A stretch of DNA of 64,000 bases, taken from positions 97,464,001 to 97,528,000 of the forward strand of contig JBNRSN020000009.1 of assembly GCA_051313645.2 (NCBI GenBank), in the 5' to 3' direction. The notes beneath the pieces were generated by a model that was given only the letters and a program-made list of their open reading frames with translations, was not told where the DNA came from and did no database searches. This DNA comes from Centroscyllium fabricii (lineage: Eukaryota). Within the stretch, counting starts at the first letter, position 1. Every line of letters begins with the position of its first letter. This document shows, piece by piece, positions 3,309 through 42,917 of this stretch. Both the position numbers and the translations under genes were made by a program.

Positions 3309-3628
3309 CAGGTGGAGCATTGGTAATCCGGCGCCCTCGGGACCAGGCCGGTACCGCACCACTGAAAATTACGAAGCACTGAAGGTTCAGGGGGAGCACG
3401 CAGGTAGAACACTCCCCGGGGTCCGGAGCGCGCGGGTAGAACACTACCCGGGAGGGAGCCCGGGGATAGAACACTCACAAGCCCTAAAAAACCAGAAACC
3501 CAAACGCCCGATGCCTTCGGCGCTCGCTCACCCTTCACGGGGAAACGACACCGCCGCCAAGCGCCGGCTCGTGCCGGGCCACTGAAGGTGCCAGACCATC
3601 GGGTGCCAGATTACCGGTGCTCAACCTG
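3309..3628. mobile_element. Tc1/mariner (pogo/Tigger-like) MITE, family A copy 1
   Basis: TIRs caggt(t/g)gagca..ggtaatccggc / gccagattaccggtgctcaacctg; TA on both flanks; near-identical copies at 35387-35705 and 42593-42917. Confidence 0.9.
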
Positions 3629-21512: not shown

Positions 21513-21965
21513 GACAGTCCATATTACGCAGGTCTCATTGCAATGGCTCGGCTGTAAATATACCAACCAGCAAGTTAGACCCAGAAAGATCCCATATTTA
21601 ATAATCAGCTGACCTCAGCAGTAACTTTGGCCAGAGATACTTGCTTTTGATTGCTGTCATCCATGCTGTAAAGTGCCCGTATTGATAGTATGAATATTGA
21701 ATTTGCCTAGGATGAGCCTGACAATCCAATGCCATGTCATGGTTTAGGTTCCTACATGAATGGCCACTTTGGCCAAGTACCAGAGACCTGCTGGTGCCAT
21801 GGAACTACAGGTTGAGCACCGTTATACCGGCACGGGCGGGTCTAGGCCCACGCCGGTAGAACGAAAAAAACGGTAGACTGAAGCCGGCCAGTGCGCATGC
21901 GCGCACCATTCAAAATGGGCGCGCGCATGCGCACAACATTGGAAATGGCCGCCGAACATTCAAAA

Positions 21966-22210
21966 TATTAGATCATCTCATCCAGAACTCTGCTGTTTGC
22001 ATCCTTGTTTGTCCATCGCTGACCTGCATTGGCACCAAGTTCCCCAATGCTCACACTTAAAGTTCTAACCTCTGTGTTTAAATCTCTTCACGGGCTCACC
22101 CCTCCCTATCTCGGTAACCTCCACCAACCCCACAACCACCCACTTCTGCCCCTTAACTATCTGTTTCTTTGACTGTGGGCACTTGTGCATCTTCCCCTCC
22201 GTTCCCCTTC
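21966..22210 (+). pseudogene. Decayed L2 ORF2 C-terminal fragment inside the MITE
   Basis: Reads approximately LIQNSA..., ADLHW..., LKVLTSVFKSLHGLTPPYLGNLHQP; no L2 tail or TSD seen. Confidence 0.7.
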
Positions 22211-22404
22211 GTTTAAGGGTTTCAGGGATGGCAGGTGAGCCACCGCACCCTGACGTCACGGAAGGCCCAGCTCGTCTGGCAGCCGTTTTGAATGCTCTGT
22301 GCATGCGCTCGCCGTTCGGCGGCGCATGCGTAGATCATTCAAAACTTCCGGTGGACTGGGCTCTGCTGCTCTCTCTCGCCTATCCTCTCCTGTCTGTCTG
22401 CTCG

Positions 22405-22557
22405 CCCGACTGCCCTGCGCATGCGCAAAATGGTCGCCACGATCGAGGCTTCGGCAAATGATCTGCGCATGCGCCGCCGAACGGCGAGCGCATGCGCAGA
22501 TCATTCGCCGAAGCCTCGATCGCGGCAGCCATTTTGCGCATGCGCAGGGCAGTCGGG
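22405..22557. repeat. 153-bp near-perfect inverted repeat (hairpin)
   Basis: cccgactgccctgcgcatgcgcaaaatgg...cgccg-aa-cggcg...ccattttgcgcatgcgcagggcagtcggg. Confidence 0.95.
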
Positions 22558-22653
22558 GCAATTTGTGCCGGAAGACTGAAGTTGCCGGCTTTTTGGTTAC
22601 CGGATTAACGGTGCTCAACCTGTATAACCATGCATGAGTCACTACTCCCAGGA

Positions 22654-35386: not shown

Positions 35387-35705
35387 CAGGTTGAGCACCG
35401 GCAATCCGGCACCTGATGGTCCGGCAGCTTCAGTGGTCCGGCACGATTGGAAACCGGCGCTCTTCATTTTGCGGAGCAACCGCTTGGTGGTGCCACTGTT
35501 TCCCACGAAGGGTGGGCAAGCGCCAAAGGCGTCGGTCATTTGGGTTTGTTTTTTCAGGTCTTGTAAGTATTCTATCCCCGGGCTCCCTCCTGGGGAGTGT
35601 TCTGCCGCGCGCCCCCCCGCCCCCGAAACCTTCAGTGGTTCAGAATTTTCAGTGGTCCGGCACCGGCCTGGTCCCGAGGGTGCCGGATTAATGGTGCACA
35701 ACCTG
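35387..35705. mobile_element. pogo/Tigger-like MITE, family A copy 2 (inverted)
   Basis: Same TIRs and interior as 3309-3628 in reverse; TA left flank, CA right flank. Confidence 0.88.
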
Positions 35706-42592: not shown

Positions 42593-42917
42593 CAGGTTGA
42601 GCACCGGTAATCCGGCACCCTCAGGACCAGGCCAGTGCTGGACCATTGAAAATTCCAAACCACTGAAGGTTCGGGGGGAGCGCACGGGTAGAACACTCCC
42701 CGGAGCCCGGGGGTAGGACACTCCCCAGGAGGGAGCCCGGGCATAGAACACTTACAAGCCCTAAAAAAACAGAAACCCAAACGCCCGATGCCTTCGGCGC
42801 TCGCTCACCCTTCACGGGAAATGGTGGCGCCGCCGAGCGACTGCTCCGCAAAATGAAGAGCGCGGGACCACTGAAGCTGCCAGACCATCGGGTGCTGGTT
42901 TACCAGTGCTCAACCTG
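42593..42917. mobile_element. pogo/Tigger-like MITE, family A copy 3
   Basis: TIR caggttgagcaccggtaatccggcacc; TA TSD. Confidence 0.9.

Follow-up and report, generated by a model that had tools for sequence, protein, structure and literature searches.

The window analysed here is a stretch of 64,000 nucleotides from Centroscyllium fabricii (contig JBNRSN020000009.1, positions 97,464,001 to 97,528,000 of the forward strand), and at 21808-22622 it contains a non-autonomous element of 815 bp, bounded by terminal inverted repeats (TIRs) that are set inside TA dinucleotides. Its parts, in window coordinates, are the following:

21806..21807, no strand: TA target-site duplication (TSD), left; TA is present on both sides in 28 of 30 fetched copies
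21808..21830, plus: left TIR, ~23 bp; TA followed by the first 17 bp of the TIR is found 55,367 times genome-wide without a mismatch, the control 0 times
21831..21955, plus: CpG-rich left arm, common to the recipient family
21956..21965, minus: CENPW 5' UTR remnant; the exon-1 part on its left (~98 bp) has been deleted and persists in elements L116 and L117/L119
21964..22206, plus: captured, decayed LINE 3' ORF2 region (presumably L2-like); donor at C1:460.91 Mb, 207/238 with 9 substitutions
22207..22210, no strand: 4-nt filler where the captured interval has lost ~350 bp internally
22211..22235, plus: right end of the captured LINE-locus interval (donor DNA past the LINE 3' end), 24/25
22236..22263, minus: CENPW promoter remnant, including a CRE-like octamer; exon 1 of the gene at C1:428,958,893, exon 2 at 428,969,638
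22264..22351, plus: inner right arm with a short hairpin (22285-22308 / 22322-22345)
22352..22404, minus: DDX60 5' UTR remnant, apparently from a sister lineage carrying the DDX60 5' UTR, exon 1 and the start of the intron
22405..22557, no strand: large hairpin of the right arm, with 70-nt arms at 94%
22600..22622, minus: right TIR
22623..22624, no strand: TA target-site duplication, right

Positions 21964-21965 can be assigned either to the CENPW remnant or to the LINE piece. An earlier note, made from the letters of the window alone, had recognised intact TIRs with a TA duplication and CpG-rich arms around an older cargo, and both observations hold: the duplication recurs in the copies, and the arms have CpG observed/expected ratios of 1.37 and 1.27, against 0.43 for the cargo they enclose. 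The 7.2-Gb genome contains at least 40 full-length copies of the 815-bp element, the window's own included, and the 39 others are 96-97% identical to it (the best 40 of 7,377 candidates). They are spread over many contigs, each with its own TA duplication, and among the 30 fetched copies the flanks are mutually unrelated except for 8 pairwise matches, which are ordinary repeats. Non-CpG divergence from the consensus of these 30 copies is 1.6% in the left arm, 1.0% in the cargo, 1.7% in the promoter-like piece and 0.9% in the right arm, figures that lean young because the copies compared are those nearest to the window's copy. As the earlier note had proposed, we collected elements with these arms: among the first 30 loci seeded with the TIR they measure 318-849 bp and have the arms in common while their interiors differ, several of them with no partner TIR in range. 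Elsewhere in the window, other ends belonging to this TIR clan, more diverged, lie at 3571-3628, 35387-35444 and 42593-42615.

The TIRs, at ~23 bp, fall within the limit of 40 bp that characterises the pogo superfamily, and the element is likely of pogo type; the TA duplication is not diagnostic in this respect, because it is shared with Tc1/mariner. Pogo (DDE_1) transposons are abundant in this genome and their TIRs begin similarly to those of the 815-bp element, which we take to resemble the TIR of human Tigger4/MER46. A transposase with a matching TIR was found at none of the 50 DDE_1 loci examined (of 150 listed, from 1,715 candidates), and the family TIRs that lie near five of these loci are those of inserted MITEs. 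On contig C967, seven pogo DDE_1 transposase matches carry the same open frame of 558 aa, possibly as an amplified array. The Tigger-like pogo MITEs of Gao et al. (2020, PMC7386202) likewise have a TA duplication and TIRs shorter than 40 bp; unlike them, the shark element has no autonomous partner with the same TIR among the 50 DDE_1 loci.

The main cargo, 245 bp of LINE-like sequence, comes from an abundant dispersed repeat and is frameshifted; copies of the repeat in unrelated flanks match it (E 2e-8 and 5e-8), and relative to them it has a deletion of ~30 bp. What remains of its reading frames resembles the C-terminal end of an L2 ORF2, and from the motif there we assume that it belongs to the L2 clade. 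A protein search with one frame of the cargo gave no match, and no reverse transcriptase domain lies beside three related fragments, all of them short 3' fragments. The earlier reading of 21966-22210 as an L2 ORF2 fragment is to be split: a decayed, LINE-like 3' ORF2 is indeed present, but the LINE-derived part spans about 21964-22206, and 22211-22235 is a separate piece of the donor. A 28-mer of this cargo occurs 1,423 times in the genome at up to 2 mismatches. The first 30 of these loci comprise 21 copies of a ~715-bp subfamily, 5 of the 815-bp element, 3 of a sister with a different deletion and 1 left untagged. At ~1,400, the copies of the LINE piece are well above the numbers reported for animal capture. 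Contigs from DNA runs under a second organism label contain pieces of the LINE cargo and of the arms, none of them bridging a junction, a hint that the family is shared.

The earlier note had also suggested a search for a donor locus lacking TIRs, and one was found. With the start of the cargo, free of the arm, as the pattern, we obtained 85 matches, fetched 33 and judged the other 52 from their matched letters. A single arm-less locus was present among the 33 (L097), where the LINE continues both upstream and downstream and where no TIR occurs in 40 kb (20 kb on either side); three further candidates from the 85 matches proved to be one element and two chance matches. The donor matches 21964-22200 at 207 of 238 positions (22 of them gap positions) and 22211-22235 as listed above, and 400 bp of donor sequence separate the two pieces. 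When the donor middle, which the window copy lacks, was used as the query, 41 matches were returned: the donor itself, 11 rows in nine places (78-98%) and, for the rest, the tails of ordinary LINEs (72-78%). Both TIRs are present in seven of the nine places. These nine progenitor copies retain most of a 640-bp donor interval and, at full length (~1,010 bp), keep it through the LINE 3' end and ~200 bp of flank. Among the 41 matches the first ~40 bp of the donor middle occur in the donor only, and a segment of ~45 bp near the right end of the LINE piece, present in the donor, is missing from all the element copies seen. In sister lines the 640-bp interval is shortened by another deletion.

Sequence distances show when the LINE decayed. 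The progenitor consensus departs from the donor at 3 of 175 sites, the other LINE copies being at most 78% alike, and the distance to their own consensus is 2.4% for the progenitor copies and 0.9% for the 815-bp subfamily. Given this near-identity and the low divergence of the copies, the decay predates the capture, and the claim that old sequence lies inside a younger element is borne out. The comparison of arms with cargo that had also been proposed finds the two equally diverged among copies (non-CpG 0.9-1.7%). The captured piece does not end in a LINE tail, has no TSD and does not come from a young source. As the earlier note had supposed in preferring capture to L2 retrotransposition, the LINE-like cargo is captured genomic DNA, with a TIR-free donor and an interval that runs past the LINE 3' end. 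At four small deletions of the donor (19, 2, 7 and 17 bp) the elements keep the longer state, which reflects either decay of the donor after the capture or a true template that was another allele or a lost paralog.

The promoter-like piece on the right of the cargo is a host promoter, as the earlier note had suspected, but it comes from CENPW, by a separate and earlier capture, and not from the L2 donor. Without LINE cargo on its left it has at least 700 matches, the pattern being a narrow one, and 28 of 30 fetched elements with the CENPW piece are bounded by TIRs, most of them 440-560 bp long. Read on the minus strand, their interior has a start codon followed by ~28 codons, which Pfam matches weakly to CENP-W in all three tested (best E 0.0019, below the cut-off). 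The family search finds one CENP-W exon 2 in the genome (PF15510, 48 bits), and exon 1 lies 10.7 kb upstream of it, with a GT donor and within a CpG-rich stretch; the interior of the elements aligns to C1:428,958,824-977, that is, to CENPW exon 1 and its promoter. This locus is a parental copy not associated with TIRs. A consensus of 16 copies differs from it at about ten sites and by one 5-bp gap, and since the CENPW-carrying copies stand 4.8% from their own consensus, their capture is older than that of the LINE.

Both captures are joined in surviving intermediates: in L116 and L117/L119 the CENPW exon is joined directly to the LINE cargo, and the LINE interval stands in place of ~6 bp of the CENPW 5' UTR. 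The loose end at 21957 corresponds to the undeleted CENPW exon junction, seen in two independent DNA runs. In one further element (L110) a recombinant junction leads from the start of the CENPW exon into LINE cargo at a shared 6-bp word. The window copy keeps only 21956-21965 and 22236-22263 of CENPW. The CRE-like octamer comes from the gene, and an ETS-like hexamer spans the junction, with recipient bases making up the rest of it; the left remnant presumably contains the reverse of a CHR-like cell-cycle box. Two signals read from the letters do not survive this dissection. The splice-donor motif cagGTGAG, which straddles a junction, is present only because this copy has a private T for the consensus C at 22236. 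The inverted pair cattcaaaa/ttttgaatg, taken as a bracket left by the capture, consists of a CENPW 5' UTR remnant on the left and, on the right, of a recurrent arm motif seen again at 21905 and 22334.

A third host locus contributed to the right arm. The stretch 22352-22385 has 2,534 matching places, and a longer version of the piece is present in 25 of 30 fetched. Two patterns of cargo without arm, with 18 matches each, gave no donor directly; a longer element from the second (L265) pointed to DDX60 at C711:330,405,392, which has neither TIR nor arm motif. In L265 and L314 the donor-matching cargo spans the 5' UTR and exon 1 and reaches 57 bp into the intron (L314: 323/398), and because of this intron sequence it derives from DNA and not from mRNA. 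Among shark DDX60 proteins, three match exon 1 of the donor (61-63%) and one matches exon 2 (23/24); RRP15, considered as the donor gene, lies on another contig and was ruled out. The 53-bp remnant in the window aligns to the DDX60 5' UTR by way of the sister elements, a direct BLAST of the remnant against the donor giving no match. As the DDX60 piece occurs in the 815- and ~853-bp lines and is absent from the progenitor and the 715-bp line, its distribution suggests that it was gained by a switch onto a DDX60-carrying sister. Other DDX60-carrying elements (L217, L218, L222-L224) have extra cargo of tandem CCAAT-containing repeats, with a nested repeat in some copies.

The interior of the 815-bp element thus matches three separate single host loci, and we consider it highly probable that the pieces were captured one after another, likely by template switches, and that the products were spread by transposition. 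The donors, the intermediates, the junctions, the copy numbers and the TSDs can all be observed in this genome, and they are consistent with the following series: (i) an ancestor would have acquired most of CENPW exon 1 together with the 5' UTR and the promoter; (ii) the 640-bp genomic interval, with the decayed LINE end and its flank, would then have replaced the ~6 bp inside the CENPW piece; (iii) deletions would have taken out the CENPW exon and also portions of the LINE interval that differ between two daughter lines; and (iv) the 815-bp subfamily would have acquired its DDX60 remnant, likely through the switch onto the sister element. We infer that acquisition likely proceeded by template switching in DNA repair or replication, at a gap under repair or a stalled fork, for which the 70-bp hairpin may have been a break or stall site. 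The internal insertion with both recipient sides intact, the intact and distant donors (32 Mb away on C1, or on another contig), the intron DNA, the filler and the junction overlaps of 1-5 bp, read from alignments, fit template switching. Amplification was by cut-and-paste transposition, likely with a pogo-type transposase acting in trans.

Could a LINE transcript with 3' read-through (3' transduction) instead have been retrotransposed into a CENPW-carrying MITE that was then amplified? The insert begins inside ORF2, as 5'-truncated LINEs do, and extends past the LINE 3' end; moreover, L2-type LINEs often leave no clear TSD. We nevertheless hold this to be very improbable: the source is one decayed, frameshifted copy and no young subfamily, the insert ends ~200 bp past the LINE tail, has neither a new tail nor a duplication and stands in place of ~6 lost recipient bases, the related DDX60 cargo contains an intron, and the 41 matches include, apart from the donor, no retrocopy of the 640-bp interval without TIR arms. 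We give no better chance to an end-bypass or composite capture, in which elements beside the donor mobilised the DNA between them. Such a mechanism has been proposed for plant Pack-TYPE elements (Gisby and Catoni 2022, PMC8903248), and the starts of CENPW and DDX60 do have family members at a distance of 10-30 kb. However, the LINE interval is embedded in CENPW sequence, the recipient is intact to its left and right and has no internal TIR, the 20 kb on each side of its donor contain no TIR, and the donors are still in place. Least probable of all, and hardly credible, is the reverse direction, namely that ectopic conversion by an element gave the LINE locus its sequence; the longer LINE-like states that elements keep at the four donor deletions would agree with it, but the donor LINE stays in register upstream, its flank continues downstream, and the donor alone has the ~45-bp segment.

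Several features relate the element to known systems. Like the multicopy Pack-hAT-N8_XT and Ssk-FB4 (Tan et al. 2021, PMC8277862), it is a non-autonomous TIR element whose interior duplicates a parental locus devoid of TIRs, and it shares with animal Pack-TIRs the short junction overlaps, the distant donors, the distinct TSDs from repeated transposition and the capture of the 5' part of a gene. TIR arms with a TSD, TIR-less parental copies (the LINE locus, CENPW and DDX60) and multiple copies at distinct sites and TSDs are all found here. Tan et al. ask in addition for a non-TE interior, whereas the main cargo here (270 bp) is TE-derived, and for this reason the 815-bp copy qualifies only through its small remnants of CENPW (10 + 28 bp) and DDX60 (53 bp); the ancestral families also have such an interior. 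That study gives four multicopy Pack-TIR cases for 100 genomes, the example having three copies. In contrast, single cargos of the shark family have as many as 1,423 and 2,534 pattern matches, three loci contributed to the nested captures, and intermediates still exist. Plant Pack-MULEs and Pack-TYPE elements (PMC8903248) resemble the shark family in the stepwise gathering of fragments from several loci within one TIR family, and Pack-Mariner has the same TA duplication. The shark family differs from those plant elements in its vertebrate host and in its mode of acquisition, in which DNA of a distant locus was inserted internally, with no evident part played by insertions nearby. A search of mostly open-access literature returned no such family in sharks. 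The family is new relative to known cases by its scale and nesting, and otherwise works as animal Pack-TIRs do.

The captured pieces are probably passengers. We incline, if only slightly, to regard the family as a vertebrate counterpart of plant Pack-MULEs, in which serial capture would be biased to gene starts, cargo would be swapped and spread to hundreds or thousands of sites, and a dated series of intermediates would record the process; CENPW promoter pieces with CRE and CHR-like boxes would then be scattered over the genome and open to co-option. Animal gene capture by cut-and-paste elements had been described as rare and mostly single-copy, and its multicopy route was inferred from few examples. 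Here donors, recipients, intermediates and daughters occur together in one genome, and because the whole series is kept, the capture mechanism, the donor bias and the exchange of cargo can be tested on hundreds of junctions. Dispersed CENPW and DDX60 fragments can also mislead gene annotation and read mapping.

Inspection of printed sequences suggests that cargo has been exchanged between arm lineages. Elements of 839 and 1,016 bp, each with at least 40 copies, have a fourth cargo after the CENPW piece, promoter-like and 380-550 bp long (L131, L139, L140, L148, L151 and L155), for which the donor searches returned elements only. Three others (L182:2374-3078, L067 and L051) have interiors matching no donor found, one of which replaces most of the CENPW piece. 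A near-identical, young subfamily of 531 bp (L046, L058, L060, L061 and L065) has a GC-rich interior with what we take to be an X-box-like palindrome, and elements of ~697 bp (L055/L056 and L070) belong to the same subfamily and carry in addition ~166 bp of another repeat. Finally, three near-identical copies of one element lie at 56.36, 56.40 and 56.79 Mb of contig C224 (L397-L399), probably within a segmental triplication.
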